This document shows positions 822 to 60,110 of a stretch of DNA of 64,000 nucleotides, one piece after another (position 1 is the stretch's first letter; each line of letters starts with the position of its first letter). Position numbers and translations under genes: made by a program. Source of the DNA: Hormiphora californensis (Eukaryota; Animalia; Ctenophora). The DNA lies in the NCBI GenBank assembly GCA_020137815.1, contig CM035360.1, positions 1,240,001 through 1,304,000 of the forward strand. The letters are read 5' to 3'. The notes under the pieces are model-generated. The model saw nothing but the letters and a program-made list of their open reading frames with translations. It ran no database searches and was not told the origin of the DNA.

Positions 822-3800
822 TCATGATCTAATCCAGTTAACTATTTTAGCTCTCACAGATGGGTTCGCAAAATAATAAACAACACAATCACACAGGGGT
901 ACACTATAGTAACAGGTCACTAAGATAACCTGTGCAGTAAAATAATTGAATTGGATACCTTGCTGAAGTAAAAAATCCGGAATTGCAGTTGACATATTGG
1001 ATAGACAAATCAGGAAACTGAGTTTTAACAGTTTAGCACAAGCCCTCCCGTTGAAGTAGACAGTCAGGAAGATGGCTAAGTAGAGGAGAATGGAGATGAA
1101 GAATGGTATGATGTCCATGACGATGGGGATTAGACTGGTGTTGATGATAAGTGATCCATCCCAAACACATCGGTGGTACTTCTGTTTGTAGATTATCTAG
1201 GGAGGGGGGTTTTGATAAATCTGGGGGATGCACGTTTTGGTGGGCGGACTCTAGTGCTAAACTGCTAACGGACTCTTTATCTAAATCCAAGGCGGACTCT
1301 ATATCTAAAAACGGATTTTTTATCTACAGTTAGACTGTGAAAAAATAAAGAGTTTTTATTTTATAGGAGGATTTTTCTGGTGTATCTGGTATGGGATTGC
1401 GCTTGTAGTTGTACTGTTTCACCGCGCCCCGCAGGGCACATATATAATATATAATAGAAGGGTTAGAACATAACAAATATGCGAGTAGTTTATTTGAAAT
1501 GGGAAGGGGGAGTGGTTGAAATTTAGAAAAAAGAGACTATACCTTGGACAGTCCAAGTTGCAAGGTAGTTACCCTGATAACGGTCATAACAAGGGTTGGT
1601 CCATATGCAATTGTTATCATTACCACCTCAAAAACCCATGAACCCTTTAATTTTCGGTGTCGTATTAAGGGCATTACCACCGCTAAAAACCTGTCTACCG
1701 ATATCGGTACAATAACCAGCATCTGACTACCCCTTAGAGTGTCGGATTTTGAAATAATCTTTCCACTTCCATCTTTACTACACGTATTTTTTCACGCTGA
1801 TTCCGAATCTGTCATTTATTTTGATCTACGACCACGTCTTCCCCTGGAGACGCCCTCCTGAATGAATTGCTTGTGCGTCGCGTTGCAGTGCTGTCACTAT
1901 GCGCTCTCTCTCGCCAATTAGCTGCGCTCGCAAATTTACACACAGCTGTGTCACCTGAGATGGATCTCAACGGAGTTGCTGTCTTCTCAGTTCGGTAATT
2001 TCGAGAACAAACACTTGTAACTTGGTGGCATAAAATAAAGTAATATCTCAATCTCATCTCTCAAGCAAACTTCACAGAAGCTAAAAACTGTAATCTGTTA
2101 AATAAAACAGGTTGTAAATTATACATGTTGTCACGCATGTTACACATAAATAGGTTAAAATTGTCTCTATGTTCTATAAAAGTCCCTCTGCCTGATCCAT
2201 GCGACGTTGTAGTTTTCCTACACGAACCTTCCCTGGGTTCTCCTCTCGGTTCCGTTTGATTGCCAGGGCCATACCCACTTGCCTCATATGCCCGGTGATG
2301 CGGTCGACACACTTGGATGTGAGGGCCACGTTCCGTTCCACGTGTTATATCTCATCGAAAAATAGGTCAAAATGGTTAATCTAACAAAAACAGTGTTACA
2401 TAGAGATTAGAGAATTGTCAGGAAAAATGTTTGCCTGACAATTATCTACAACACTGTTTTTGTTAGAACCATTTTGACCTATTTTTTGATGAAATATGAT
2501 CAATTTAATGGAGCCCCGTCAAGACTCAAAATCGCAGGTCACGCAAGGACAGTAGAACACCCTGTACTACAATATGATGATAACATACTAAGCTAGACAG
2601 GCCACTGTAATAGGAATTGTTGGCTGTTGGTTGAGGGTAAGACACAGACCACAGTGATATCTTACGTTTGTATTGCATTAAACTAAACACACACAGTACG
2701 TGAAAGGCACACCCCACTCAAAGCTAAGCCACTTGAATTCCGTATCGTGATATATATGAATCGTGTAATTGAATCGTACATCGGGCCAGCTCTAATTGAC
2801 AGTGCCATACACCCAGATATCAAGGATTTTCACAAGTTGGTATGGGCTATGGCTGCATCGAGTTGGTATGGAAGCGTTATAGAGACTTTAATACCCTCCA
2901 TACCAACTCTCTAAATATAATCTATGAGTTGGTATGGAGGTCACTGAACCTCACAAAACGCTTCCATACCAACACCCTCCATACCTATGTGGTATGGGGG
3001 ATGTTGGTATGGAGGTTGTTGGCATGTAAGTGTGGAACCATAATAACTACCATTTTTACAATCGAAATATCGAATCTCTTTCTCGAAGCACGTGATTTGT
3101 CACGTGTTGAAGACATAACCCCGCTAAAAGTGAATGAGATTGGGCACTTCCTACTCACCCTAATGATTTTATATTAGATGGCCTAACTGGGTATTTCTCC
3201 TTTTAGATCTTTTTTCCTGTTGTTTGGTTCGTGATTCCAGCCCAGGTTGAGTTTCAGGAAATATCGATATTTCCTGAAACTCAACCTGGAATTACGAACC
3301 AAGCAACAGGTCCAATTCATTAGCAAATGATCAATTGATGATGGATTGGATCTTAATTGTCTTGGCGTTTAAACTCAAAATTTCTGACCGCTGAGCAGCT
3401 TCGTTGAGATCCATCTCAGCTCAGGTGGCACAGTTGTGTGTAAATTTGCAAGCGCAGCTAATTGGCGAGAGAGAGCGCATAGTGACAGCACTGCAACGCG
3501 ACGCACAAGCAATTCATTCAGGAGGGCGTCTCCAGGGGATGACGTGGTCGTAGATCAAAATAAATGACAGATTCGGAATCAGCGTGAAAAAATACGTCTA
3601 GTAAAGATGGAAGTGGAAAGATTATTTCAAAATCCGACACTCTACTACCCCTGCAAGATATGTTAATTTAGGAACTATTGATATCTGGAAGTTGGGCTAT
3701 TATACTAGACAGTAAGGGAAAATCACGACATTATATCAATTGAAGAATGATTTGTTGGAATAATAATGCGTCGTGTAACTGTAAATACCATATGCATACA

Positions 3801-4328
3801 AAATGTCCCAAAAGGGTATAGATTTTACAAAAGTTGTTTGAAGTTGTCTTGCCATCCTCGATATCCCAAATATCACTGGTTAGAATGCCTATACCACGAA
3901 TAGTTCCCACTACCGATACTAGCACGTTCGTCAGCATAAGCAGTAAGATGCATCTTACATGTAGAGATTCTGGCCGGGGGGGGGGTATTGGCTGATCAAG
4001 TCTGGTACAAAAATTTAGCCGCGTCAACAACAGATCAGCTAAATTTTGAAAATAACAACTCAATTAATTAACTAAACCAGTTACCTGACTGCCTGGTAAT
4101 CGTAACCGTGCTGTAATTATGTTGAATGATATGAAGGCAGCCCCAACTGTACCCGTTAGCCCTATACCAGTTATTACTGCACCCTATAATAGTTGAGAGA
4201 GGAAAATTAAATTTAAATTGAAGGGATAAAATTATAAAGATTAAAATTGTACTCACATTAATAAGTCTGAATTTACAAACAGGGATGGTATCATTGACAC
4301 AGTCGTTATAACTAATATTGTAGGACAT
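822..4328 (-). CDS. Orphan class A (rhodopsin-type) GPCR, 5 exons
   Basis: Exons 4328-4257, 4183-4085, 3991-3789, 1733-1543, 1196-822 join in frame at GT-AG sites: MSYNISYND..GAVITGIGLTGTVG(TM1)..LLLMLTNVLVSVVG(TM2)..FCKIY..WGSQMLVIVPISVDRFLAV(TM3)..YHRCVW..DCVVYYFANPSVR. The exon 3 acceptor is the least certain. Confidence 0.85.
1735..3644. mobile_element. Non-autonomous hAT-like DNA transposon
   Basis: About 245-bp terminal inverted repeats starting TAGAGTGTCGGATTTTG; perfect 8-bp target duplication CTACCCCT at 1727-1734 and 3645-3652; no transposase ORF; internal hairpins near 2348-2498 and 3216-3310. Confidence 0.9.
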
Positions 4329-4926
4329 GTTCCATAAAACCTATTAACAATTGAATGGGATAAATTATTTAATTAATATAATAAAGACTAACTGGAACTA
4401 AAATAATAAAATGGATAGTATAATAAGGTACGTAGAACTATAGTTCCATTTTAGTGAGGGCCATATTATATTTGACGCATGCCTGGGACAAAAAAAAGTG
4501 AAACGAAATGTAATGCAACAATTGAAAAATTAAATGGTGCCTTCAGGAAGCATGTGAAACCTTTACTAAATCTGGGTATCCGACATCCGTAGGTAAAAAG
4601 TGAAGGTATCAAAATGTGTAGCATTTTTGCATTTTGTGTGTTTTAAAGGAAGAGAGAGAAATCAACTATGCTGTTTGATACTCAATGAGTCAATGCTGTG
4701 TTGCTGTCCGGCACCGCAGACCCCATCTGAGCGCATTGAGAATCAAGTCGGGATACTACTGAGTCGGGATACTGAGTCTGAGAAAATAAAAATGAAGTAT
4801 GAACAATTCAACTATATAGATCATCTAATTTGCCACAAGATTGGCGGGGCATGAGATGACAAAATTTGTGTGAAGAAGAAGACAAAAGTAAACCACATAA
4901 TTGTAATTGTCCAACAATAAACTCAT

Positions 4927-5812
4927 TAGGGTCAGCGCACAGGGGGAAAACAGTCGTGCCTACAAACCTCAGGTCAAGTACACGGCTATTTTCCACTGAG
5001 ACCTGAGACAAACTGAATATGTAGTGGCACTAACTACTAACTACAACCAAAGTGTTATAGCTCATTAGCTCTCCTCTCCCCACTGCGACACTACTATCTA
5101 GTATACTAGATTGTATATAGTACATAACGTTCTGCACGCAGTGCAAGCGCGCCATATACGCTCTGCACTGCAGAGCGTATATGGAGGTGAAATGCACGAC
5201 AGCGGAGCTGGAGTGCATTTCACACCTATATTGCACGAGTGAAACGAGTGCGATATAGGGGCGCTTGCACATGCCGTGCAGGACGTTATTGAGTATATAT
5301 TCCGCGAGAAAACACATGACAAGCAAAACAATCATAATTTTGGGTGGTTACACACACAGAGATGTGACAAAACAAGGTCCAAACTAAGCAAAAACACACT
5401 CAAAAATACTAACAGACACTACTGCAACTCTTACACACAAGGGAAACAATGTCTGATAGTTTGAAACAGTGAAAAGAAGAGAAGATAAGAGAGGTGCGAG
5501 AGAGGGAGATGGAATTCTTGGAAATAGCAACAACAAAACTGATAGGGATTTTAGGTGAGAGAAAAGGGAGAGTGAGGTAATTTGACAGACCCTTTGTGTC
5601 GTGTAGTACTTGTCAGTCATATTCTGTGTGTTTTTGTGTGATAAGGGGTAAAAACACGCGAGAACACATTTCTTACTTATATCCCGCTCCCTCTATCTCT
5701 GCACGCTCCCGCGGAAAGCACGTGCAATATTTCAGCGTGCAATGGTCCGCGCACAGCGGAGTTGAGTATGTGCCCTCGCGGTAATCACTGCACTGGCAAG
5801 TGCCCTGGCCTA
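4927..5812. mobile_element. Probable MITE-like insertion
   Basis: Imperfect inverted ends TAGGGTCAGCGCAC / GTGCCCTGGCCTA; similarity to the paralogous segment at 11300-11457 stops at its left end. Confidence 0.4.
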
Positions 5813-7298: not shown

Positions 7299-8190
7299 GC
7301 TTTTTGTCCCGGGGAAGACCCCCCATAAATCGACTATCTACATGTCGTAGGCTATGTAAAATTTTGATTTGAGCATGGGAAGTCATTAATATGCATAATT
7401 TATGTATAATTTTATGATTATCTCGGTATTGGTTGTTGTAAGGACATTTCAAAGGACATATTTCGACGCAGAAGAGTCGATTTATGGGGGGTCGTCCCCG
7501 GGACAAAAAGTCGTATCTCGCACCGTTTAGCCGTTATTTGCATACTTATGCGCAGAATCATGATTTAATGCATATTCTGAATATTTCCACTTCAGATGGT
7601 CCTAGAACGTTTTCATGGACATATTTCGACGCAGAAGAGTCGATTTATGGGGGGTCGTCCCCCGGACAAAAAGTCGTATCTCGCACCTTTAGCCGTTATA
7701 TGCTATTTATGCACTGATTCATGATTTAATGCATATTCTGAATATTTCCACTTCAACTGGTCCTAGAATGTTTTCATGGACATATTTCGACGTAGAATAG
7801 TCGATTTATGGGGGTCGTCCCCGGACAAAAAGTCGTATCTCGCACCGTTTAGCCGTTATTTGCATATTTATGCGCAGATTCATGATTTATGCATATTCTG
7901 AATTTTCCACTTCAAATGGTCCTAGAACGTTTTCATGGACATATTTCGACGCAGAAGAGTCGATTTATGGGGGGCGTCCCCCGGACAAAAGTCGTATCTC
8001 GCACCGTTTAGCCGTTATATGGATATTTATGCACTGATTCATGATTTAATGCATATTCTGAATTTCCACTTCAGCTGGTCCTAGAATGTTTTCATGGACA
8101 TATTTCGACGTAGAATAGTCGATTTATGGGGGGTCGTCCCCCGGACAAAAAGTGTATCTCGCACCGTTTAGCCGTATTTGCATATTTATG
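7299..8190. repeat. About 160-bp tandem repeat, 5 copies, plus one inverted partial copy
   Basis: CATATTTCGAC recurs at 7457, 7620, 7781, 7940 and 8099; an inverted fragment lies at about 7299-7340. Confidence 0.9.
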
Positions 8191-8215
8191 TTACCTGTTT
8201 ACAAAACCCTGAGAA

Positions 8216-12216: not shown

Positions 12217-15200
12217 ATGAAACCCCAGCAATAATAGGTAACCTGATATTGTACTCTTAGAGAACGGTACCTGGCTTTCTTTCTCTGTAAGCCCTCCTAA
12301 CTCTCCTTAACATGAGGAAGGGTTGAGTAAGGCAACTCAAGGGAGCTGTAGGCATTAAAAAACACAAGTCTGCCCATTATATATCGGGGTCTGCAGAAAG
12401 GACTCAACTTTCTATATTTCTAAACTCCCCCCTTCCCTCCCAGGACAAGTTACACCCCAGCTACCTCATCCTTTGATACACCCTCAACATCCTTTGGCAG
12501 GGTACCCCCCTCCACACCAAGATCTACAAAACGGCAGAGAAACGAGAGCTGCTCATCTAACCTTGATTCATCTTTCTACAGTGAGTACATTGTACAGTGA
12601 GTATATGTACATTGTACATTGAGTACATTATACATAACTGAGTGCAGTGAGTGTATGTAGAAGGTGTTGTGATTCTTGGTTTGAGTAGTAAAGTTGTTAT
12701 AGTGGTGTGTGTGGTGAGTGGAGGTTGTGAGAGAATAACTGCAGTGGTGAAGTGACGGCGGTTTCAATTGTTATATATTAGAGATAATAGAGGGAGAGAG
12801 AGAAAAAGAGTAAATCTAGAAAACAAAGATAGCATGTAACCAGTTTTTAACATGCATTTACATTGCGTGATGTTTCACACTGAGTGCGTTGCTATGGTAA
12901 CCATGTGATAGTTGATACCTCACTCTTGGGTATCATGGGGTCCCTTATTTTTCTCCCACACATTACATAACCTAGTTGCCCGTGGTAACATGTGTCTCCC
13001 CTTCTTACCCCACTGCAGTGCCCCAAAAGGGGTACAGAACTGTACAAAACTCTTTCTCTATCTCTCTTTCTCTCGCTCTCACTCCCGGGATCTCCCCTTT
13101 TCCACTATCCTTTTATCTCCCTCTCTCCCTCCCGTGCTCACTTTCTCTCTATCCCAGACCCCTCTATTTGTCCGTGATCCCCCTCCCCTCCCAACCCAGG
13201 TCCAGATACCACTCCGACGCTAAGCGGTGGAAGCAGATGTAGAGCCTCTAAATCGTTAGGATCCCTTACTGGCAGGTGAGAATCGTTATTTTTTATTTTT
13301 TGTTTCTGTCTTTCTGGTATCTTTATTATTTCTTTTTTCTTCTTGTTTTTCCTTATTTCTTTTTTTTCCTTGTTTTTCTCCAACACACCTTACAACCTGG
13401 TCTGAGACCCTATCATGAAAACAGTAAACGCAATCCCGCTCAGGACCAATTGATTACTTCGTTGAATTTCAGGAAATTAAAGAGAATGGAAAGAGAAATT
13501 ATAATTCTAGGTTCTTTAGCCTCCCAACACAACTCCATATATGGCTGTGTCCATATAAGGAGTTGTGTTGTGAGTTGCCCGGGCCCCACCACGTGGAGGT
13601 AAACCTAGGTAGGAGCACTCTCTTTCTTAATGTTCTCTCTCTCTTCCCCCCTTCTATCTCTTTTTCTGATTTCTCTCTCTCTCTCTCTCTCACTCTCTCT
13701 CTCTCACTCCCTCTCTCTCTCACTCTCTCTCCCCCTCTCTCTCTTTCTCTCTCTCCACAAACTAAGAAAGAGACTGCTCCAGCTGGGTGCCCTGGTGCCC
13801 GTGACCGGAAGGCGATGCCCGACCACTAGCCGCCTGTTGATAGCGGATGGCGTGGCTGATTCGGACGGTGCAACCGGTACACAAAGCGGTAGGACGGCAG
13901 GGGAAGAGAGAAAGAAATAGGTTCTCTCAACCTCCCCCCACACATCCCGAAATCGGAGGCGAGTAGCATGCCCGGCTCAGGCATGCTCCCCACCTATAGC
14001 GAAGTAATCATTGAGCATAGCAGAGTTGTGTTTGCTGAAACCACGACAGAACCTCACACCAGGCCATCTTCATCTCGGCGTGGCTGAGGGCAGTTACCCG
14101 ACTTATCGTGTAGAAGTCAGACTAGATGGGGCAACAAGAGAGTGAGGCTGTGTGTGTTGTACAGCTGCTTATATAATGAGGGCTAGTCACGTGGTGTGCG
14201 TGGTGATCACGTGGTGTGCTTGTTGCGCTGTAGCAGCACAATGTGATGGTCACGTGATGTGCGCCTCCTGCACTGCCGTGCTGGTAGAAGCACTGGGGTC
14301 GTGTGGGGGAGGCGGCATGATCTAATAGCAAGGATAGAGAGCAAAGGAGAGAAAAGAAAGGGAGAGATAGAGAGATACTGTTGAACAAACGGATAATCTC
14401 TCACCGCTACAGCTGGCTACGGTCTGAATAGCGAGAGACAGAAAGAAATAGGATAGAGATATAATTATAGAGCGACAGAAGTGTGAGAGAGAGATAGATG
14501 GAAGTATGACGTCATGCCCCAGAAATAACTGTTCATGATTGGTTGCTAAGCAAACAATAACAGTCGCTGCAACAAGATGGGGGGGGGGTGCAGCCCAAAA
14601 AAAACCAACCATACCCTGGATTTTCAAAAGTGTTGATTTTTTTTGGTCGTTTTTGATTTTTTTTGATTTTTTTTGATCTTTTTTGATTTTTTTTGATCTT
14701 TTTTGATCTTTTTTTATTTTTTTAAATTTCTTTTGATCTTTTTTTATTTTTTTGATCTTTTTTGATTTTTTTTGATCGTTTTTGATTTTTTTAAAATTTT
14801 TTTGATCGTTTTTGATTTTATTTGATCGTTTTTGATTTTTTTTGAACTTTTTGTTCAACATTAAACAATCAAAAAAAATCAAAAACGATCAAAAAAATTC
14901 AAAAACGATCAAAAAAATTCAAAAAAAATCAAAAACGATCAAAAAAAATCAAAAACGACCAAAAAAAATCAAAAACGACCAAAAAAAATCAAAGAAATTT
15001 CAACCAAAAACGACCAAAAACGACCAAAAAAACCAACCATACCCTGGGTTTCGGAAAAAGTTTGAATTTTTTTGGGGCTGCACCCCCCCAAGATGAATTT
15101 GGTGCAATAGCCAATACATGCTAAATGTAGAATTCAACTTCAAAACAAAGCAAAATGGTTTGGTGCCCTTCGGCAGTACAAGAGACTGAAATGAAGTCCC

Positions 15201-17170
15201 CCACTCACCTGAGCAATCCAACATTCATTAATGAAAATAATAATTATCTCCCGTTCTCACTTCTCCAGACACCAAACACTTCCTAGTTCCTATAACTTCC
15301 TAGATATTCTAACAAATAATTGTTCAACATGTCTAGACGGCAGTTTCCTTTGGGATTATATGTGCATAATTAACTCTCCACACACGTTTCTTTCCTTCTG
15401 GAATATTCTAAACTATCATCCCATACTCTTTTCTTTTTCCACTCTCTTCTTTCTCCGTGGACCGTGTGTTGTTACATGCGTCCTTGTGTCGATTATTATA
15501 ACTCTGGTGTTGATTTGCTTTGTTCGTTATCTTCATCTCTCCCTGAATATATTTTTAGTTGCCTAGCTAGACTGTGTTTCGCGCGCCCCGCCCGCAGATG
15601 TAAAGGAGGGTTAGAACATCACAAATTTTTAGTCCTAAATCCAACTATTCCTCAGGTTTTGTACCCTATTAGCCAGCTCTGAGGACAGCTCTCTTGATCT
15701 CAATTATGCGTGCTCCAAATTGGGCGTTGCTAAGCGACGGATCTATGATATCACAAACGTGTTAGAGGGTGTTGGTCTGATTGAGAAAACTACCAAGAAT
15801 CTAATCAGATGGAAGTGAGTTTTGGGAACTTTTGGGATTTTTTAATCGAGGAATAAAATTCAATCCGTCACCTCCAAGCTCATTTTATGATAATGCTATT
15901 ATTTTTACCATGGCAACCAAAGGTAACATAACACTCTACTCTCCCCCAGGGACAACTCAGGTGATTCAGAAAGTGCAAACTCTTCTGCGGAAAAAGAAAA
16001 ACAGAAAAATATCACATTATTACAGTCAGAAATTTATTCTTTGCAGTTACAGGTAGCTATTAATTATTTAATTGTACTAGTTTCAATTACTAATGAATAC
16101 TTAGCTTGTTCATCTATCTTACCTCTGGGACAGTACAACATTCAATTCAGAGATGGTACCACCCTGTACTTTTGTTTGTTTCCCATCACACCCCCCCCCC
16201 CCCTATCAGGACCAGCACCTAGAAAAGATAATGGACTCTCTGAAAGCGGACCTGGATTCCATCTCACCCGAATTAGGAAAAGAAAACCAAACGTAAGCTG
16301 CCCAAATATTCAGCCCCCTGATTCCTGATCTATCTTTAACCCAACAAGAATGATATAATAGTATTTCTTGATCCAGAGTTGTACTGAATCTTGCTTTTAA
16401 CACGCCCCTTCCCCATAGAAAATGCTACAAATACATAACAAATGATGATCTGAACAGTATACCAGAGTTTTGGAGTAAAATGGTGATTCCCATCCCAGCT
16501 CCAAAACAGGCTAAATTGGAAGTTGTTGACAAGGAACCGGGACAAACGGTAAGAGTTTAGACTGACTTATAATGTGACTTAGATTGAATCCCTACTTGTA
16601 CAACCCCCCCCCCCCCCCCCCCCCCCGATAAAAGGTGAAATTACATATATCCCCCTTTCTCAGGATATCAAGATAAGGATCAGTAGCGAAGACACGCCCT
16701 TCGTTGTCTACGAGCCCATCTACCCGCTCAGTCCTGCTGAAATTAAACCACTACTCCCAACTTTGGAAGACCTTCCTCCTCCCCATCACCACCATCTCCC
16801 TCAGCCCTCAATAACAGCCCCCTTGGCACCTCCCCCAGGATCCCTTCCAGAACCCTCCCTCGCCTCCTCCTCATCCTCCTCAATGACCCCCACAAAAAGG
16901 GGAGTCCTCTCAACCCAGACCCTCACCGCAACGCCAGTCAAGACTCCGGGCAAGGTGTCACGGCATTCCCTCGAGTTTCCATCACCCCTCTCGGTGTTCA
17001 GGTCACCGTTCAAGTCACCCCTCAGTTCCCCGTACAAGGTGTCACCCTACAAGTCACCTTTTAGGAGAAAGTTGTCATTTGGTATGCCCGCCAGTCCAGA
17101 TCTAAATTTTGACTTTTTCTCCGGGCTGGGAGATAACGAGGGGATCAGAGATTTGTATGATGCGTGGTAG
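12217..17170 (+). CDS. E2F: E2F transcription factor (typical E2F1-5 type with Rb-binding C-terminus)
   Basis: Exons 12444-12580, 13200-13275, 15656-15814, 15950-16052, 16210-16292, 16419-16548, 16664-17170 join in frame: [56 protein letters not shown]; marked-box-like YITNDDL..VIPIPAP..LEV; C-terminus [16 protein letters not shown]. The first exon (12217-12237) is tentative and needs a homopolymer correction. Confidence 0.93.
13752..14143 (-). ncRNA. Candidate structured transcript nested antisense in E2F intron (family unidentified)
   Basis: Minus-strand TATATAA at 14175-14169, Inr-like TCACTCT with A at 14143, several hairpins, no convincing ORF, near-identical second copy at 23311-23702. 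Confidence 0.35.
14143..14260 (-). promoter_or_regulatory. TATA + Inr + CACGTG E-box cluster
   Basis: TATATAA begins 32 nt upstream of the Inr A; three CACGTG within about 85 bp upstream of the TATA; the same layout occurs at 23702-23836. Confidence 0.5.
14580..15088. mobile_element. Fold-back MITE with internal 10-bp repeats
   Basis: TIR GGGGGGTGCAGCCC; (TTTTTGATCG)n facing (AAAAACGATC)n; direct repeat CAAGATG at both flanks (5-7 bp TSD); absent from the duplicate region near 25070. Confidence 0.85.
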
Positions 17171-17302
17171 AGTTGTAAAATGCCATACTACCTTTGGTTT
17201 CGCTATTTTATCGGGAGTTGACCCGAAATCAGAGCTAGCAATCTCAGACGGTTTTCTAGCAGATCTACACTCTGTTTCTCTTGTGGAATCATGCTTGACA
17301 AG

Positions 17303-17411
17303 CAGGAACCGACCGAATCAGGAAATACTAGTCTCTGATTGGCTGATAGCCAGTCACGTGACCTAAATAACGAGCTCTGATTGGTTGTTAACTTGGTTCG
17401 GTCGGTTCCTG
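17303..17411. mobile_element. Short hAT-type MITE
   Basis: TIR CAGGAACCGACCGAA; 8-bp flanks TTGACAAG / GTGACAAG. Confidence 0.85.
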
Positions 17412-17577
17412 GTGACAAGCCACCTGGTAGTGCAACAAAAGGAATAAAGACAAAACGTAAATTCAGTTCAGCGACCCTAATTCTTATTTGAGATTTCACC
17501 CTGTAAATACTGAGAAAGATAGAGAGACAGATCGAGGGAGAAAGAGAGAGAGGGAGTGTGTGTGAGAGAGAGAGAGA

Positions 17578-17630
<53 letters not shown>

Positions 17631-18282
17631 AGAGAGCAGAGAGCAGAGAGCAGAGAGAGGGACAGTTATTCAAAATGCTAGCCTTTTGATCAAATTTGTA
17701 AGGGAATTTCATTGTGTCTCGATGTTTGTTTTTGGGGATCATTGGCGAATATTTTAGCTCGAGATCGAGGAAAGAATACAGAGAGTTGAAAAGCAGGGAG
17801 TTGGGAGTTATTATATATGCACGCTCCAGAATAGTCTTTGTATATTCTTTGTACATTTAGTGATAGTATAGACTATTATAGAGCTGTTAAAGTAGCGTAA
17901 TAATCAGATAATACTTTTCAGTGCTTCTTTTCTCTCCCTAAATACTCATGATTTTCTGGCCCGTTTGTGTATCTTTATCCCTGTCAATTAAATCGAGTTG
18001 ATGATCCCAATTTTATCGTTTAAGGAAAGCTCTTACATATAATACCTTGACAGTCAATTATTTTATTAGCAATAGTTTTACATATATTGTAGACAGGCAA
18101 TTAAAGTATGTAAAAACTTAGTGATGGAATAGTTTATTAGTTGTGGGATAGTGTGTGACGAGTCGGAGTATAACAGTACAGATACACAACCGTGTCATGT
18201 TCTGACCCTCTGCGGTGTGAGAGAGGGTCGAGCAATATGTTTTGTTATTCGTTTGCTGATAGAAAAAAAGAAAGATTATATA

Positions 18283-18355
18283 CAGTCGGTCCCCGATTTA
18301 CCGGGAAAGGTACCTTTTTTTTCCCCAAGCATCCCGGTAAATCAGGGTCCGTCTG
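18283..18355. mobile_element. Short palindromic MITE
   Basis: TA-CAGTCGGTCCCCGATTTACCGGG..CCCGGTAAATCAGGGTCCGTCTG. Confidence 0.7.
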
Positions 18356-18698
18356 CAGTACCTGTGAAGTATCTGTGAAGTATAGAAAGCTGTGATGTGT
18401 CCAATTCTCTTACAACTGTTCAACAAATCAATGTTTTTTAGAGAGCGTGAGAAATCAGAAGATTGGCCGATTCAATATATATCTCTCTCCTTGTTTTTCT
18501 CTTATTGCAGCACATCTTCTGCTTTTTCATTGATACGTGCAGTCTTTGTGCGTTCATCTCCTCTGATTTTGAAGCGGTAGCTCAGCTTCCCCATCTATTC
18601 AGTCCTCTTACATCCCTTCTAACATTGCCCAATTCCCCCAACATTCGATTCCATAACATAGCTCCCTTAAATATTTACCTCTCTCTCCATAGCCAGCC

Positions 18699-18847
18699 AT
18701 GTCTCATTTCGGAGAGGTAGATCCTATGTGGAACTACCAGCTGTGTTTCATCTCAGTGGCAGGTTTGCAACCGACACAGATCTGCTGACCATTGGAGCGT
18801 ATAGGACCGAAGCTGGGAAACCTTGGGTACTACCATGTGTTCGACAG
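18699..18847 (+). pseudogene. Isolated degenerate copy of aspartate aminotransferase exon 1
   Basis: Near-identical to 25759-25917 but with a 2-bp insertion and loss of the ANKVN codons; no downstream exons follow. Confidence 0.85.
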
Positions 18848-19223
18848 GTAAACTACATTCCTGGGTGACAAGTCCCAAAATGTGTGTTGAAAGGGGCTAT
18901 ACAATACGGAATACCCTGTGCCCACATCCCTATCTACTCTGTTCCCAGTTCCTGACGGTCGCTAATATCTGGCACCATTGGTCGAGTCTATATGTCCCCC
19001 GTCTATCGTCTCTCTTACGAATTGTATACCCCTCCCCCAGCAGCCTATAGCATGCAACTTTAAATACTAACATCCGGATAGAATAGTACACTCTAGTAGT
19101 ACACTCTACTGGGTGGCAGCTAGGTACACAAAACTCTTTCTCTCTATATCTTTCTCAGCCGCTCTCACTCCCGGGAGCTCCCCTTCTTCCACTATCCCTT
19201 TATCTCCCTTTCTCTAACTCCCT

Positions 19224-19349: not shown

Positions 19350-22300
19350 CCTGGTGGGACCTATAAAAAAACAATAACGCAAAAACCCCTCGGACCAATT
19401 GATTATTCCTTTGTTTGTCCACAAAAAGGAATAAAGCCCCAAAAACTTTTTAAATTCATTTTTCAGCAAACCCTTTAATTCTTATTTGAATTTAAAACCC
19501 TTTGTAATACTGAAAAAGTTTTGAGAGACGATCGAGGGGGGGGCAAAATGAGAGGGGGGGGTGGCGGGGGGGAAAAAGGGAAAAGGGGGGAGGGGGGCAA
19601 GGGGAGAGAGAAGGGGAAGGGAAAAGGGGAGGAGGATGGGAGGAGGAAGGGGAACCCGGGGGGGGGGGGAGGGCCGAGGGGGGCCCCGGGAAAAGAGGGC
19701 CCGTTTTTTCAAATGCAACCCTTTTTTATAAAATTTTTGAAAAGGGAAATTTTATTGGGGTTTTTCTCGATGTTTTTTTTTTGGGGATCTTTGGGCCCGA
19801 ATATTTTAGCTCGAGATCGGGGGGAAAAAAAAATACAGAGGGGGTTGGGAAAAAAGCAGGGATTTGGGGGTTTTATTTTTATGCAGTTTCCAGAATAGTC
19901 TTTGTAGTTTCTTTGACTTTTGGGTGATAGTATGACAAATTATAGAGCTTTTTTTAAAAGGGGTATTTTAAAAATCAAAAAACTTTTTCATTGCTTTTTC
20001 TCCCCAAAATACTCATGATTTTCTGGCCCGTTTGTGAAATTTTCCTTTATCCCTGTAAAATTAAATCGATTTTATGACCCCAATTTTTAAATCGTTTAAG
20101 GAAAAAGCTTTTTACTTTAAAAAACCCTTTGACATTTCAATTTTTTTTTTTGGGAAATATTTTTACATATTTTGTAGACAGGAAAATTAAAGTATGTAAA
20201 AACTTAGGATGGAATGTTTTTTTTTTTTGGGATAGGGGTTTTGGGCCCCAAAGTCGGAGTATAACAGTAAGATTAACCAACCGGGGGGGGTTCAATTTTT
20301 GACCCCCCTTCTGGGGTTTTGTGGGGAGAGAGGGTTTTGGGGGGAAAAAATTGTTTTTTTTATTCGTTTCTGATAGAAAAAAAGAAAGTTTTATAAACAG
20401 TGGGGCCCCGATTTCCCGGGGGGAAAAGGGGTCCCTTTTTTTTTTTCCCCAAAGCACCCCCGGGTAAATCGGGGGGCCCGGGTTTCCTGGCAGTACCTTG
20501 AAGTATCGGGAAAAAGGTTTTTCAGAAACTTTTGGAGGGTGGGTTTTCCAATTCCTTTACAAATTTTTAACCCAAAAAATTTTTTTTTTTTTTAGAGGGG
20601 GGCGGGGAGAAATAAAGAAAAATTCCCCCGATTCAAATAATATCTCTCCCCCTTTTTTTTTCTTTATTGACAGCACATTTTTTGCTTTTTTTTGAAAACG
20701 GCGGGTCTTTGTGCTTTTCATCCCTCTTGTTTTAAACTTTTAACCCCCCCCCATTTCCCCCCCCAAATTTGGGGGTTTTTTTTTCCCTCTTTAAACCTCC
20801 TTTTTTTTTAACATTCCCCCAAATTCCCCCCCCAAAATTGGGTTTCCCAAATAACATAGCTCCCTTAAAAATATTTACCCCCTTTTCTCCATACCCCACC
20901 CAATGGCTCTTTTCGGAAAAGGTGGGAATTCCCTATGTGGAACTCCCAGCTTGTTTTTCATCTCATTTTGGCGGGGGTTTGGGGGGCAACCGAAAAACAA
21001 TCTGTTTGACCATTGGACTTTATAGGCCCCGAAGCGGGAAAACCTTTGGGTACTACCATGTTTTTTCGACGGGTTTTAAAATACTTTCCCTTGGGTGGAC
21101 AAGTCCCAAAATTGTGTTTTTGGGGAAAGGGGTAATTTAAACAAAATAGGGAATACCCGTGCCCACATCCCTATCTACTCTTTTCCCCAATTTCCCCGGG
21201 AGGGTTTCCCCCTTTAATATCGGGGAAACCTTTGGTTTCGGGTTATTTTTGGTCCCCCGTCTATCTTTTTTTCCTTACGAATTGTATACCCCCCCCCAGC
21301 GGGCCTATAGAAATCCCAAATTTAAAACTAAATCCGGTTTAGAAAAGAAAACCTCTGTAGTACCCCTTTTACTGGGGTGGCAGTGGGTAACAAAACCCCT
21401 TTCTCCTAATATCTTTTTTTCCCGGGGGCCGCTCTCCCCCCCGGGGACCCCCCCTTTTTTCCCCACATCCCTTTTTTTCCCCTTTTCTCAAAACCCCCTT
21501 TAATTCTCTCTCCCCTCTCGCCCTTCCCTCCTTTTCCCCCCTTCGTTTTCTTTTATCTTATTTCCTTCTTGTTTTTTTCTTATTTCTTTTTTTTCTTCTT
21601 GTTTTTTCCCACACTCACCTTACAGCCTGGTGTGAGATCCTATCATAAAAACAGATAACGCAATCCCACTCAGGACCAATTGATTACTTCGCTTGAATTT
21701 TGGGAAATTGAAGAGAATGGAAAGAGAAATTATGGTTCTAGGTTCTTTAGCCTCCCAACACAACTCCATATATGGCTGTGTCCATATAAGGAGTTGTGTT
21801 GTGAGGGGCCCCCGGCCCCCCCCGGGGGGCCTTGGGGCCCCTTTTTAAAACCGGGGCCCCCTTTTTTTTTTTTTTTTTTTTCCCCCCCCCCCCCTCTTTT
21901 TTTCCCCCCCCTTTTCCCCCGGCCCCCCCCTTTTTTCCCCCCCCCCCCCCCGGCCCCCTTTTCCCCCCATTAAAAAAAAAATTTTTTTTCCCCTTCTCCC
22001 CCCCCCCCCCTTTTTTTCCCCCCCCCCTTTTTTTCCCCCCCCCCCCGGGGGGTCCCCCTTTCTCTCTCTCTCTCTTTTTTCTCCCCAAAAAACCCCTTTT
22101 TTTTTTTTTTTTGGGTTTTTTCCCCCTCCCCCCCGGGGGTTCCTTTTTTGGCCCCCTGGGTTTTTTCCCCCTTTTTTTTTTGGGGGGGGCCCCCCCCCCC
22201 CCCTTTTTTTTTTTGGGGGCCCCTTTGGGGGTTTGGGGCCCCCCCCCCTTTTTTCCCCCCCCCCTTTTTTTCCCCTTTTTTTTTTTTCCCCCCCTTTTTT

Positions 22301-23280: not shown

Positions 23281-23310
23281 TCTCTCTCCTCTCTCTCTCT
23301 CCTCTCTCTC

Positions 23311-23702
23311 TCTCCACAAACTAAGAAAGAGACTGCTCCAGCTGGGTGCCCTGGTGCCCGTGACCGGAAGGCGATGCCCGACCACTAGCCGCCTGTTGAT
23401 AGCGGATGGCGTGGCTGATTCGGACGGTGCAACCGGTACACAAAGCGGTGGGACGGCAGGGGAAGAGAGAAAGAGATATGTTCTCTCAACCTCCCCCCAC
23501 ACATCCCGAAATCGGAGGAGAGTAGCATGCCCGGCTCAGGCATGCTCCCCACCTATAGCGAAGTAATCATTGAGCATAGCAGAGTTGTGTTGTCTGAAAC
23601 CACGACAGAACCTCACACCAGGCCATCTTCATCTCGGCGTGGCTGAGGGCAGTTACCCGACTTATCGTGTAGAAGTCAGACTAGATGGGGCAACAAGAGA
23701 GT
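23311..23702 (-). ncRNA. Second copy of the candidate nested structured transcript
   Basis: About 6 substitutions versus 13752-14143 by manual comparison; TATA at 23734-23728. Confidence 0.35.
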
Positions 23703-23959
23703 GAGGCTGTGTGTGTTGTACAGCTGCTTATATAATGAGGGCTAGTCACGTGGTGTGCGTGGTGATCACGTTGTGTGCGTGGTGATCACGTGGTGTGCTT
23801 GTTGCGCTGTAGCAGCACGCTGTGATGGTCACGTGATGTGCGCCTCCTGCACTGCCGTGCTGGTAGAAGCACTGGGGTCGTGTGGGAGAGGCGGCATGAT
23901 CTAATAGCAAAGATAGAGAGCAAAGGAGAGAAATGAATGTGCCAGTGAGAGAAAAAGGA

Positions 23960-24937: not shown

Positions 24938-25758
24938 TGTTAGAGAGAGATGGAATATTATAGAGAGATGGTTTGAATGTAGCGGTAGATAGATGGAAGT
25001 ATGACGTCATGCCCCAGAAATAACTTGTCATGACTGGTTGCTAAGCAAACAATAATAATCGATGCAACACAAGACAAGCAATTGGTGCAATAGCCAATAC
25101 ATCCCAAACGTAGAATTCAACTTCAAAACAAAGGAAAATGAATGGCATGGTATGGCGCCCTTTGCCAACTGCCAAGATACTAATTAATTTCTCCTACTCA
25201 ACTGAACAATCCAATAATTATCTCGCGTCCTCTAAAGACACCCAAACACTTCCCATAACTGCATCCTAAAGATGTTCTAACAAAGAATTGTATGTCTAGA
25301 CGGCAGTTTCCTTTGGGATTATGTGCATAATTAACTCTCCACACACGTTTCTTTCCTTCTGGAATATTCTAAAATATCATCCCATACTCTCTTCTTTCTC
25401 CGTGGACCGTGTGTTGTTACATGCATCCTTGTTTCGACTACTCTGGTGTTGAGTTTCTTGTTCGATACCTGAATTTTATATTTTAGTCCTAAATCCAATT
25501 ATTTCACAGGTTTTGTACTCTGTTAGCCAGCTCTGAGGACAGCTCCCTTCAACTCAGCTATAATGCACACTCGAAATTGGGCGTTGCTAAGCGACGGATC
25601 TATGATTTCCCAAGTCCCCCCAACACTACCCAAGTCCCCCCAACACTACCCAAGTCCCCCTAACATCCCGCCTAACATTGCTCCCTAACATACCCCTGCT
25701 TCTAACATCCCCTGGCACCCAAGCTGCCTAACATACCCTCTCTCTATTATAGCCAGCC

Positions 25759-28700
25759 ATGTCACATTTCGGAGAGGTATCCTATGTGGAACTACCTGCT
25801 GTGTTTCATCTCAGTGGCAGGTTTGCAGCCGACACAGATGCTAATAAAGTTAACCTGACCATTGGAGCGTATAGGACCGAAGCTGGAAAACCTTGGGTAC
25901 TACCATGTGTTCGACAGGTAAATCACAGCGCTGGCAGGCGCCCTGGGGTCAATATTCTATATGATTTAGGGAGAGGTTTGGAGCCCGTGACACAGTCCAG
26001 GGTTAATCAACTCAAACTAAATATCAAGTTTGTCCTGAGATATAATTGCCCTTCAATTAAATATCTTCTACCCCGTGCTTCAGGCTGAAAGTATCCTAGC
26101 ATCAGATGAAACTATTAACAAGGAGTACCTCTCCATGTCGGGTCTCCAGTCTCTTTGTGACGCGGCCATGAGGCTGGTGCTGGGTGAGAGTAGTCCTGTG
26201 ATTCAGGAGGATCGAGCTGTAGCGCTCCAGACCCTCAGTGGAACTGGTGCTCTCTACATCTGCTTCCAGGTACTGATGACGTCATAACGCGTGACGTCAT
26301 AACGTGTGACGTCATCTTGTGTGATTTGTGACGATTCAATGCTCAATGTTGATGGAATTGTTCATTCATCTGATTAACTACGAACTTCATTTCATTGTTC
26401 AATATTTTAGTTTAAAGTTCGTTGTGGCCTACCTACTAAGTAACACCCCCCCCCCATTTTCAGTTTATTGCCCAGTTCTAACACCCCCCCCCCCCCCCAT
26501 TTTCAGTTTATTGCCCAGTTCTAACACACCCCCCCCCCCCCATTTTCAGTTTATTACCCAGTTCTAATACCCCCCCCCCCCCATTTTCAGTTTATTGCCC
26601 AGTTCTAATACCCCCCCCCCCCCCATTTTCAGTTTATTACCCAGTTCTAATACCCCCCCCCCCCCCATTTTCAGTTTATTGCCCAGTTCTAACACCCCCC
26701 CCCCCCCCATTTTCAGTTTATTGCCCAGTTCTAACACCCCCCCCCCCCATTTTCAGTTTATTGCCCAGTTCTAACACCCCCCCCCCCATTTTCTGTTTTG
26801 GGACCACCTAACACCCCCCCCCCCTCATTTTCAGTTTATCGCCCAGTTCTATGGCGGTTGTAAAGATATCTATGTCAGTGACCCATCATGGGGTAACCAC
26901 AAGCTGATGATTGATAGGATTCCCGGGGTTAACTTTAAACAGTACCCTTACTACAACTCTCAGGTATGAAATTACTTGTCAATGACATGTAGTACATGAC
27001 AATTAGTATGACAAGTCTTGTCATACTACATGACTGCAATGTCGTGCGACGTGCACGGTTCGGAGAGGGCATTCTTTTGTGAGACAAGAAATCTCCGATT
27101 ACTTTAATTCTCTTGCTGGGAAAAGGGATTTGTGTTTTTTAGCCCAGCTGCTACTTGGGCGATTCTTATCTTCTCGTAAGAGAGGCAATATTCTACCACC
27201 ACACCATATTAAATCATTATGATTTTATGCGAAGGGAGGCTGGTGTCTTATTACCCAAACTCACAAGGTTTGTCGCTATCCCGTTTGGAGGGTATATAAA
27301 GGGGCATGAACCCATCCTAACAGCCCTGTATGGGCGCCGGTGTTAGTTCATAACTACCCGGTAGAAACTGTTGGAGTAGGTCGGGAGTGCATTATAATTA
27401 CCGTATGGCCCAATGTTGCTCCCGTCTTGTTTCCTCAGTTTCAAAATGCGTAAAGGATCCATGATCTTTACAGTTTCAAAATGCACGTAATGGATCCATG
27501 ATCTATACAGCGTTACTACAGTGTTATATAATACAGTGTCATTACAGTTGAACCATGCTCAACTGTGATGTGTTCAGTGTTCCATGAACATGAACATACA
27601 GAGTACAAGTACAGGTACAAATATCAAATACAAATAAAAAATAGGGGAGAACTCTCCCCACCCTTTTTGTTAACCCTATAACCGTTTTCATCTCTCTCCC
27701 GTCTTTTTTCATCGAATCCCTCGCTGCATTCTTCCCCATTAAATTTCCAATTCTAATTAAATCTCCAACTAATATTAGAGATACCTATTTCAATTAAATT
27801 AGTAATTACAATCTCTCTCAGACCATGGCTGTGGATGTTGATGCCATGTGCAAAACTCTGGAGGAGGCTGCTGAGGGTAGTGTAGTTCTACTACACGCTT
27901 GTGCCCACAATCCAACAGGTGTGTACTTCCCTTAGTTAAAGTAACAATCTCACCCTACCCTCTCGCCTAGTTAAAGTAACAATCTCACCCTACCCTCTCG
28001 CCTAGTTAAAGTAACAATCTCACCCTAATCTCTCCCCTAGTTAGAGTAACAAACTCACCCTGATACCACCCCTATTATTATACAGGCATTGATCCAAGTA
28101 GGGACGATTGGGTAAAGATAGCTGCTGTCTGCCAAAAGAAGAATCTTCTGGTTATCTTTGATTTAGCCTACCTCGGTAAGAAGAGTCTTTTTTATCGCAT
28201 GTTGTACCCATTTCTATAGAGAGAGAGAGAGAGAGAGAGTTCTTCCCTACCTAATTCATACTGGCAATATCCCTCTACCTGATCATCGCCCTTCCTTTCG
28301 TTGCTAAGTAACGCGGCACTTGATGACTAAAAAACAACCCAAACTCTAACCCTCCCCTCGTTGCTAGGTTACCAAACTCTAACCCTCCCCTCGTTGCTAG
28401 GTTACCAGACTCTAACCCTCCCCTCGTTGCTAGGTTACCAAACTCTAACCCTCCCCTCGTTGCTAGGTTACCAAACTCTAACTCTCCCCTCGTTGCTAGG
28501 TTACCAAACTCTAACTCTCCCCTCGTTGCTAAGTTACCAGACTCTAACCCTCCCCTCGTTGCTAGGTTACCAAACTCTAACCCTTCCCTCGTTGCTAGGT
28601 TACCAAACTCTAACCCTTCCCTCGTTGCTAGGTTACGCGTCTGGTGACTACAACGAGGATGCATGGAGTATCCGATACTTCGCAGACCTAGGCATGGAGT

Positions 28701-30358: not shown

Positions 30359-31083
30359 GGGTAGAAAGGGGTAAAATGGCACACTTTCTAACGTTTTAGG
30401 TTCTAAAATACTCAATTTATACAGCAAGAAGAAAAAGAATTATATAGGCTATCCAATGAAACGTTTTCCTTTCAGACGAGCTAAATTTTAAAATCTGAAA
30501 GTTTTATTTAATAGCTTAATTAATCAATTCAAAAAGTTTGGTAGGGCTTTTTTTGGAAATTTTGCACTGGGGTAAAATGGTCCAGCCAATAGCATTGCTC
30601 GATTTTTATCACGTGCCTGGTGTTGTTAGAGCACTGGGGTAAAATGGTCCATGTTATCTTCAGTAATTTCTGTTCTGCTGGACCATTTTACCCCAGTGTG
30701 CTGGACCATTTTACCCCAGTTGGTATCACGTGGTATTGGAGGCTCGATTTCATTGGTCCCAGGGTGAACCATTTTACCCCAGCGAGGGTGAACCATTTTA
30801 CCCCAGTTTGACTAATTTGACAATTTAATCAACTTAATAGTGGGTTTTTTGAAAAATTTTTATACCAAGTTTTAGAAGGATAAAAACCCTAACTGGCAGT
30901 TTTTGCAAAATTAAAATCGGCCAACTCAAACAGAAATTACAGCAGTTTTAAAGCAAAAATTCGGAACAGAACGAGCAGGTCTCCGCTGGAGAAAAAGTCA
31001 CGTGACTACATGTAATAACTAGGACCATTTTACCCCATACATGTGCCATTTTACCCCGTGTGCCATTTTACCCCTTTCTACCC
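30359..31083. mobile_element. pogo/Tc1-type MITE
   Basis: TIR GGGTAGAAAGGGGTAAAATGGCACAC; TA on both flanks; internal GGGGTAAAATGG motifs. Confidence 0.9.
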
Positions 31084-46689: not shown

Positions 46690-49091
<2,402 letters not shown>

Positions 49092-54960: not shown

Positions 54961-55715
54961 GGGGAAATGGTAGCTGGATTAGGGAACGCTGACATCACAT
55001 GCACCATCCGTTCCTAGCCTCTCTCACTTTCTCCCTACCCATGTTGTTGTACGCTCTGGGCTTCCTGACAATTTCAAGGTGCGAATTTAAGAGATCAATG
55101 TCATGGAGGTGCAGTGCTGTTCCAGAAACTCATCACGTGAAAACTTCGCCGCTATGTAGCCGATTCGGAGATTTCTATATTCGACTGGAGTAATCACCCT
55201 TGGGCGACGTTGGGTAAAGCTATCCGTAGTCGTTGTCCGTTGATTGGCTCGCTTGAACACGTTGGCGTAATCTGTCATATTCTCTAGCCTGCTCCCTGAC
55301 AGCAGCAGATCTTCTGGACCTATATAACCGTTGCCGAATAGCGCTTGGGGTGGAAGAGCTAGACATCAGGACAGAAGTAAAAGAATGCACGTGCAGAATT
55401 GAATTGGCCCTTGGTACCCAAAACTGCAACTGGGAGTGAGGTTTCTAAGTTGCTCTAATAATTGCACGTGCAGGTGTAGTTGCTAGGTGATGTAGCACTG
55501 ACAATTTGAATAGTAAGTAGTATGATGGCAACAGCTCACCCCTGTGCCCCACTCACAATCAAATATATCCAAGCAGCCTAGTGCAGCACACTTAGCACCT
55601 AGTCGCCACAACGAAACAAGGTGTGCATAACATTGTGTGCACTATTATATGACACGTGTAACGATAATAGCACCGGATCTGGGGCATATTATATATTGGA
55701 TACAATCACTAGCAA

Positions 55716-59390: not shown

Positions 59391-60110
59391 TTCTCTGCAG
59401 CACGTGGCTATATGACAGGTCGTTAACGATGATCAACTCTCCCAGATGAACACGTGTCAATCCATTGTATACCTACCGCCAGAATAATTAGAATAATAAA
59501 TATTAGCAGTGGACATGAAGAAAACAAATAATTTGATAATAACTGTTGTAATATATCTCAACTCATTCTATTTATTCAAACCACGGTTCTTAATTATCTC
59601 TCACGGTTTAACCCGGAAAACATCATCATCATTTGAATTTCTAGCCACGTACTGAACATGTTGTATCTCATGTTGTGTCTCATGTTTTAGTCCCAGCTAG
59701 AAAGCGAAAACGCGTGACATGGGAACATACAGAAGAATCCCGGAAGTAGAGATCACGTGTGTGTGAAACTGTGAGCTGAGAACTTTAAACAGCTCTCAAA
59801 GTAGAAGATAGCTATAAGTAGCTAGGGGATATTTATATTATTCAACAAATCAATTATGCAATTAATGCAACTGTCAAGGAATGATTTATTGATGGAATAT
59901 GACTAAATGACTTATTCAAATAGGCAGGATCCGTTTCCCGACAATCGATCTTGTATATCAATTGGGACAGATCATCTCCACCGTCTGTTTACTATTCAAA
60001 TTTTAGGAGAGATTTACCCATAGACCAGAGGTACAAAGCAATATTGTATTCATGGAATTCATTATTCACCAAACGGCAGATTAGGTCCAACGCAGACCAC
60101 ATTAGATAGA

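Follow-up and report, generated by a model that had tools for sequence, protein, structure and literature searches.

Within a 64-kb window of the Hormiphora californensis genome (contig CM035360.1 of assembly GCA_020137815.1, positions 1,240,001 to 1,304,000; all coordinates below are those of this whole window), an intron of an E2F gene harbors a compact unit that is present in two near-identical copies and that occurs in RNA libraries as contigs adding up to ~330 nt and covering none of its unique flanks. On balance, we take this unit to be an independent gene whose product is an abundant non-coding RNA of ~350-380 nt; we predict that RNA polymerase II (Pol II) reads it from the minus strand, using a TATA/initiator (Inr) promoter of its own with upstream CACGTG boxes. 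The first-pass annotation of this DNA had proposed a novel non-coding RNA or micropeptide gene; a self-contained unit with a promoter of its own, RNA contigs in three studies and the lack of any Rfam family speak for the former, while the micropeptide option did not hold up. Ctenophore non-coding RNAs are little on record and the unit offers a concrete handle on the ribonucleoproteins of an early-branching animal lineage. The RNA, which no catalogue recognises and which shows up even in seawater surveys, could also mark these animals in metatranscriptomes.

Anatomy of the unit

Read on the minus strand, the unit and its surroundings are laid out as follows.

14188-14193, 14208-14213 and 14251-14256, minus strand: E-box cluster of three CACGTG, ~50, ~70 and ~113 nt upstream of the predicted start.
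14175-14169, minus strand: TATATAA box, as read from the sequence.
14139-14146, minus strand: Inr-like CTCA(+1)CTCT with predicted start A at 14143, likewise a sequence reading.
13764-14143, minus strand: predicted transcribed unit of ~380 nt, of which RNA-library contigs cover 13797-14127.
14077-14087, minus strand: internal 11-nt repeat UCAGCCACGCC, first copy.
13849-13859, minus strand: internal 11-nt repeat UCAGCCACGCC, second copy.
13755-13763, minus strand: Sm-site-like motif AGUUUGUGG, at nt 381 in both copies of the unit and comprising the last conserved bases before (GA)n.
13629-13754, minus strand: downstream (GA)n-rich tract, at which the alignment of the two copies ends.

The E-box cluster, TATATAA box, Inr and GC-rich stretch running to (GA)n are in the sequence as originally described, with a length that we measure as ~380 nt. 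The Inr A lies 32 nt past the first T of the TATA box and the Inr consensus fits at all positions; the ~380 nt downstream of the start have a GC content of 56%, compared to 43% for the window, with the (GA)n tract at their far end. Searching the window for CACGTG-N5-35-TATAWAA returned two matches where 0.10 are expected, and these are found only at the two unit copies. The exact repeat UCAGCCACGCC is similarly restricted, with four matches in the window against 0.40 expected, two per unit copy and 228 nt apart. Both CACGTG boxes nearest to the TATA box (14188-14193 and 14208-14213) fall within a 20-nt repeat, and AGUUUGUGG bears a putative likeness to the Sm site of U1.

Sequence motifs were checked over 444 nt of each copy, using consensus patterns of the classes concerned. 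No run of four T exists within this span of copy 1, which argues against RNA polymerase III (Pol III), and the first TTTT of copy 2 comes at nt 439, in junk. Because the unit combines a TATA box and an Inr with the lack of a T run, its RNA is probably made by Pol II.

The host gene

The exons and the intron of the host that bear on the unit are these.

13202-13275, plus strand: host E2F exon (...SKSLGSLTG), followed by the donor GT at 13276 (GTGAGA).
13276-15655, plus strand: E2F intron, GT..AG, which contains the unit.
15656-15814, plus strand: host E2F exon with the winged-helix DNA-binding domain (E2F_TDP, E 5.6e-22).

The Pfam match to the E2F/DP winged-helix domain lies in 15639-15818 and begins at profile position 11; the missing domain start was found in the exon 13202-13275, and in-frame splicing of this exon to the acceptor AG at 15654-15655 yields an uninterrupted E2F DNA-binding domain. 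Further downstream, a piece of the E2F CC-MB domain in 16372-16560 reached 30.9 bits in Pfam, under the cut-off of 33.9. The unit (13755-14256) therefore lies wholly in one intron, on the strand opposite to E2F, and the earlier description of it as nested antisense in E2F is borne out by the GT-AG intron and the in-frame exons.

Cover in RNA and DNA libraries

A search of sequencing runs listed 22 runs, among which DNA-like runs from two coded organisms hold most or part of the stretch. Seven of the listed runs are recorded as RNA, all of them marine, seawater or aquatic metatranscriptomes from five studies with 13-19% of sampled words each, and such marine survey matches fit a planktonic animal. 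Eight runs were aligned to 13300-14700 as Logan contigs, which show neither strand nor true ends; three of the eight (X12, X14 and X20) are metatranscriptomes, each from a different study. Their contigs lie wholly within the unit: 283 nt at 13797-14079 with 9 differences (X12), 288 nt at 13840-14127 with 10 differences (X14) and 264 nt at 13866-14126 with 9 differences and a depth of 30.5 (X20), together covering ~330 nt (at least 331). Over 13300-14700, none of the three covered the unique flanks, with only low-complexity repeats matched at both ends, and at the unit none had loose ends or splice joints.

Two contigs from separate studies, those of X14 and X20, break off at 14127 and 14126, which is 16-17 nt past the predicted start; DNA runs cross this point (X1 contig 13763-14345, X7 contigs to 14375). 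We take the common stop as no more than a faint indication of an RNA end near the predicted start. Runs X1, X5, X7 and X15 cover the flanks too, so they behave as DNA. In X5, whose library type is unspecified, summed depth is 1400-5700 over 13764-14208 versus ~200 in the flanks; this could reflect extra gene copies beyond the assembly, open chromatin or RNA; depth taken from contigs is no copy number. In X1 the block has a depth of 84, near the flank values of 34-65, again with depth being a poor count of copies. Organism B shows no clear contrast between flank (11 differences in 236) and transcribed part (9 in 355).

One could also regard the RNA as a functionless by-product of the host, either an RNA of the enhancer or upstream-antisense type, arising from an intronic enhancer rich in E-boxes or from an internal E2F promoter, or a stable plus-strand piece of the intron. 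Its location within an E2F intron would suit such an origin, as would another E-box and a palindrome bearing two CArG-like boxes, 150-250 bp off, and the strand is not readable from the contigs. By-product RNAs, however, are usually unstable and rare, whereas this one was assembled at depth 30.5 in a seawater survey. Moreover, the unit has a TATA box and an Inr of its own and was 98% kept in a copy whose E2F exon has decayed, the plus strand does not fold better than its shuffles, the contigs showed no joint to E2F exons and a plus-strand GT is lacking where the two contigs stop. Taken together, we judge a host by-product to be unlikely.

The second copy and the larger duplication

The unit recurs with its promoter and upstream sequence further along the window.

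23302-23952, minus strand: second copy of the whole block, with TATATAA at 23728-23734, a predicted start at 23702 and a transcribed part at ~23323-23702.

Both a repeat finder and alignment place the recurrence of block 13743-14373 (~0.6 kb) there. Positions 13760-14219 and 23319-23778 are 98.48% identical, with seven substitutions in 460 nt, two of which (13916 and 13920) sit in the loop of the GAGAGAA/UUCUCUC hairpin; the near-identical duplicate noticed in the first-pass annotation is thus confirmed. The 67 nt upstream (14194-14260 versus 23773-23839) are 97.0% identical and a 20-nt indel gives copy 2 one more E-box-like repeat than copy 1, an extra repeat that organism B also carries.

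In a blastn self-comparison, the block belongs to a larger, older and more diverged duplication. Flanking segments are 89.0% (13322-13587), 92.8% (14492-14574), 84.4% (15239-15440) and 86.0% (15441-15526) identical to their duplicates. The E2F exon at 15627-15756 reaches 86.5%, with 15 mismatches and one gap in 133, in agreement with the greater divergence of this exon that had been pointed out earlier; its copy at 25493-25663 is degenerate, scoring 23.6 bits for E2F_TDP, below the cut-off of 25.7, and diverging after RRIYD. Between copies, the unit shows 7 mismatches in 460 and the flanks 62 in 780 (Fisher p = 3e-7). Selective preservation, as initially claimed, is therefore sound as an observation, yet what is preserved is a block and not the transcribed part alone: high identity also takes in the ~230 bp that precede the start, and it breaks off sharply at microsatellites. 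At this locus, a nested gene has survived the host that it was duplicated with: the E2F copy decayed and the RNA unit is nearly unchanged.

The region beside copy 2, from 19.5 to 23.3 kb, is homopolymer-inflated, with a mean run length of 2.0-5.2 (1.2-1.6 in adjoining bins) and single runs as long as 24. Once the runs are compressed, it can be aligned at 75-83%, first with 17.9-19.4 kb and next with 13.3-13.76 kb. This looks like an assembly artefact, such as a low-quality read filling a gap, and the exact layout of the duplication is uncertain as a result.

A further duplicated piece, 18678-18852 and 25737-25922, is 88.8% identical and holds an open frame (...VELPAVFHLSGRFA.DTD...TIGAYRTEAGKPWVLPCVRQVN) that resembles the start of an aminotransferase, with no family returned by Pfam for it or for the duplicated open reading frames (ORFs) 18671-18868 and 25753-26088. 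The 25737-25922 piece comes directly after the decayed E2F exon copy, so ~2.9 kb (15757-18677) are missing in copy 2.

A duplicated block with a promoter invites an explanation by repeated or mobile DNA, be it a solo long terminal repeat (LTR) or another multi-copy element, whose similarity would stem from recent copying or gene conversion and whose survey signal would be contaminating DNA from a sequence present many times. A TATA promoter in a 630-bp block is LTR-like, the summed depth of X5 is 7-25 times that of the flanks, promoter included, and variants are mosaic among runs, an X1 contig carrying copy-2 letters at three sites (13891, 14240 and 14241) and copy-1 letters elsewhere. Against this, there are just two copies in 64 kb, both in the same order inside the larger and older duplication whose flanks align at 84-93%, and reading the block ends revealed neither TG..CA termini nor target duplications. 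The block in X1 has a depth near that of its flanks, and in the metatranscriptomes two contigs end at 14126/14127 without entering the equally deep promoter part. The solo LTR that had been listed as an alternative consequently finds no footing here, and mobile or repeated DNA in general seems to us quite improbable.

Predicted RNA structure

Folded as minus-strand RNA, 14143-13760 reaches -146 kcal/mol (z score -2.39), with 1 of 100 shuffles as good; for the plus strand the z score is -0.71, with 22 of 100 shuffles as good. Three hairpins, in windows picked after inspecting the fold, are listed here.

13957-13996, minus strand: hairpin with a 10-bp AGCAUGCCUG/CGGGCAUGCU stem and an outer stem, -27 kcal/mol, z score -4.46, 0 of 200 shuffles as good.
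13889-13950, minus strand: purine/pyrimidine hairpin (GGGGGGAGG..GAGAGAA / UUCUUUC..CCUUCCCC), -33.7 kcal/mol, z score -4.97, 0 of 200.
13815-13870, minus strand: nested hairpin including CCGCU/GGCGG, -20 kcal/mol, z score -2.54, 4 of 200.

The hairpins of the first-pass annotation fared unequally. Those built on AGCAUGCCUG and GAGAGAA are far better than shuffles and CCGCU/GGCGG is also favored, while GACUU/AAGUC (z score -0.87) is no better than shuffles. Another hairpin, 14052-14092, has a z score of -2.3. The first 12 nt are predicted to pair with nt 359-371 in a terminal stem of 11 pairs, with probabilities of 0.56-0.86, which was equalled or exceeded in 9 of 200 shuffles.

Sixteen variable positions, pooled from copy 2 and the runs, were set against the minimum free energy fold. 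Five of them are unpaired, four turn a G-U pair into G-C or A-U and three break a pair; the loop of hairpin 13889-13950 holds the variable sites 13916-13920. At pair 222-228 both sides change in X14 (A222-U228 to G-C), with only one side changing in other sources, and pairs 110-123 and 111-122, which close the loop, persist in X20 as wobbles and are lost from copy 2. Contigs from organisms B and C are ~94-98% identical, too close for covariation. Overall, the variant pattern agrees with the predicted structure without proving it, and we grade the structural support for the unit as moderate.

Coding potential

The unit is concluded to be non-protein-coding from a comparison of ORFs whose sample is small, namely the two gene copies and contigs from seven of the eight aligned runs. 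A 21-codon ORF from the AUG at 14073 is the most variable stretch, with five variable positions in 66 nt versus one in the first 70 nt of the RNA, and its codon 14 reads Q, T, R or W across sources. A longer ORF of 52 codons (AUG at ~13976) accumulates at least six non-synonymous changes (A>S, R>I, P>H, I>T/N, L>P, Y>H) versus three synonymous ones by manual count. Pfam returned nothing for the ORFs of the unit, no AAUAAA or AUUAAA occurs in the 444 nt of each copy and the translation of a 64-codon plus-strand ORF had no match in a protein database.

A micropeptide messenger read from either of these minus-strand frames would draw on the two single changes outside codon 14 of the shorter one (14047 and 14029), which are both synonymous, and on a 6-nt deletion in one organism-B contig, which keeps its frame. 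Weighed against an unstable codon 14, an ORF region more variable than the 70-nt leader and the mostly non-synonymous changes of the longer frame, this makes the micropeptide put forward at first a very improbable product, and we set it aside.

Search for known RNA classes

The first reading of the sequence had found no match to known RNAs, and the covariance scan run here upholds it: Rfam 15 at gathering thresholds gave no match in the whole window. Relaxing the limit to E values of up to 10 on stretches of 1001 nt and 391 nt returned chance-level matches only, such as U54 at 19.9 bits (threshold 40) and microRNA (miRNA)-like models at 14-18 bits (thresholds 60-88). The hallmarks of individual classes were absent as well.

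In the 444 nt of either copy there is no GATC, and thus none of the repeated GAUC that forms the HEXIM site of 7SK, nor did Rfam return a 7SK match. For RNase P and MRP, CR-I (GNAANNUC), CR-IV (AGNNNNAU) and CR-V (AUNCNGA) had no match in this span, and no Rfam match was found. None of the six permutations of CCCUAA that could serve as a telomerase template is present in either span, on the assumption that the telomere repeat of this organism is TTAGGG; the window itself has no telomere-like repeats and no transfer RNAs (tRNAs). As for spliceosomal small nuclear RNAs (snRNAs), the signature strings of U1, U2 and U6, including ACAGAGA of U6, do not occur in the 444 nt, and the single Sm-like AGUUUGUGG is followed by (GA)n without a stem-loop, unlike in the Sm class. 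Box C/D small nucleolar RNAs are likewise not matched, as there is no TGATGA and CUGA appears at two places alone, nt 24 and nt 164. With regard to the H/ACA domain of animal telomerase RNA, in which ACA stands three nt from the 3′ end, a single ACA exists in the 3′ half of the unit, at nt 307-309; it falls inside the RNA-covered stretch (to nt 347), the 3′ end of the unit being a predicted one.

Some candidates were considered and rejected. By eye, the 3′ end GCAGUCUCUUUCUU resembles that of 7SK, with no confirmation by a tool and no support from Rfam. By-eye likenesses to the 7SL Alu domain, U11, U3 box A and an 18S ribosomal RNA segment (UUCUUAGUUGGUGGAG) were neither confirmed by a tool nor supported by Rfam, and count as leads at most. 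A spliced-leader RNA was discarded: the Hormiphora spliced leader given in PMC8527503 has no match in the window at up to three mismatches, and RNA contigs run for more than 260 nt through the unit, far longer than a leader RNA.

Relatives were also sought beyond the sequencing runs. Among JGI metagenome contigs, a 21-nt core of the main hairpin was found at three loci, all unrelated beyond the 21-mer, and two other stretches of the unit had no match each in IMG/VR. No paper describing ctenophore 7SK, telomerase, RNase P/MRP or signal recognition particle (SRP) RNAs turned up in full-text literature searches, as far as the excerpts these returned go.

A special case of an RNA gene would be a very divergent member of a universal class (7SK, RNase MRP or P, telomerase or SRP RNA) lying beyond the reach of the Rfam models. 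With at least 331 nt covered, the RNA has a size that suits these classes, as do its abundance in the surveys, its own promoter and its closed fold; outside bilaterians, 7SK and telomerase RNA are generally difficult to identify. On the other side stand the lack of any Rfam match at E values of up to 10 on 391 nt and of GAUC, CCCUAA permutations, CR-I, CR-IV, CR-V and a T4 terminator, which leaves such an identity doubtful. In its most attractive form, to which we give an outside chance, the unit would be the long-missing 7SK-like elongation brake, RNase MRP or telomerase RNA of this lineage, diverged past models and motifs, with a growth-linked E-box promoter to drive it from within E2F, itself a cell-cycle gene. 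Interest in the RNA would grow much if it proved to be a diverged universal ribonucleoprotein RNA.

Proposed role and points against it

As a gene for an RNA of its own, the unit would be transcribed from the minus strand with a start near 14143, and the RNA would end shortly before or at the (GA)n tract. It would fold into several hairpins, closed by the pairing of its first 12 nt with nt 359-371, and may work in trans within a ribonucleoprotein of which it is the RNA component; the two UCAGCCACGCC repeats could be sites of binding. We favor a role in trans over regulation of E2F in cis because copy 2 kept the unit while the host E2F exon copy decayed.

Several observations weigh against an independent RNA gene of this kind. 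CACGTG is common across the window, with 33 occurrences versus 6.0 ± 2.5 in shuffles; a 5.5-fold enrichment makes E-boxes look like a general feature of this genome, possibly a general promoter or regulatory motif, and E-boxes alone are no mark of the unit. Since Logan contigs are blind to strand and ends, the minus-strand assignment leans on promoter anatomy, the asymmetry of the folds and the stop that two contigs have in common at 14126/14127. At their 3′ ends the RNA contigs do not agree (13797, 13840 and 13866), and the last of these positions adjoins the variable site 13865. Run X22, possibly RNA of organism A, does not cover the unit, which is not evidence of absence, and the excess depth in X5 extends over 13764-14239, promoter included. 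All related sequences are at least 96% identical, which makes covariation nearly uninformative, and the fold was tested on its own source sequence. Finally, the 98% identity extends evenly across the promoter and 230 bp of upstream sequence, a pattern that gene conversion would likewise leave. Gene conversion between copies is a possible cause of this identity and, considering the mosaic variants together with its uniformity, it could contribute as much as selection.

Other features of the intron and the window

Clusters of CACGTG elsewhere in the window are located at 3089/3101, 9760/9819, 30610-30999, 39894/39940, 55134-55653 and 59401-59754. Within the E2F intron, a palindrome at 13525-13572 has arms of ~20 nt (one mismatch), a 6-nt loop and a CArG-like box per arm (CCTTATATGG / CCATATATGG), and a CACGTG at 13590-13595 stands 20 bp from it. 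The surrounding 13462-13596 recurs at 21693-21827 (90%) and is also found in organisms B and C; in Rfam, the palindrome region gave sub-threshold miRNA-like matches only (25.7 bits versus 70). Possible readings are an SRF-type enhancer module of this intron and a small inverted-repeat element. In the same intron, a 10-nt tandem repeat at 14598-14892 (~20-29 units) has a huge summed depth in every DNA run (to ~100,000 in X1) and is also matched in metatranscriptomes, so it is very abundant and satellite-like.

Tandem repeat arrays with periods of 33, 177, 21 and ~160 nt lie at 28273-28668, 50678-51508, 56392-57172 and 7423-8207, respectively, some of them in long open frames. The ORF at 46690-47550 (minus strand) encodes a rhodopsin-family seven-transmembrane receptor domain (7tm_1, E 4.1e-10), consistent with an animal genome.

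Comparison with known systems

A promoter analogy can be drawn with the sea urchin U6 gene, also a small-RNA gene of a marine invertebrate with a TATA-like box and an E box. Going by the title of a 1994 report by Li, Parsons and Marzluff, the sea urchin U6 snRNA promoter is said to need a TATA-like box and an E box bound by USF. Sea urchin U6 is, however, a Pol III gene ending in a T run, whereas the unit has neither a T run nor a definable proximal sequence element nor ACAGAGA.

With 7SK, a nuclear RNA, the unit shares the character of an abundant RNA of ~330 nt with its own TATA promoter and paired ends, and it may have a similar pyrimidine-rich 3′ tail after GCAGUCU. It differs from 7SK in lacking the repeated GAUC, the T4 terminator and any Rfam match; GAUC is described as the HEXIM site of 7SK in PMC2995076.

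BC200, 4.5SH and snaR are lineage-restricted abundant small RNAs, produced by Pol III from short interspersed elements (SINEs) or tRNAs. The unit resembles them in being abundant, confined to a narrow group of near-identical sequences and outside any Rfam family, and differs from them in that a SINE or tRNA origin is not visible in it.

As for its setting, 1654 host genes with nested genes are reported for the Hormiphora californensis genome, and these nested genes were annotated from Iso-Seq (polyadenylated) transcripts, according to PMC8527503. Compared to these nested genes, the unit has no conserved ORF and no poly(A) signal. What it has in common with ctenophore nested intronic genes is that it forms a separate transcription unit inside one host intron, here on the opposite strand.

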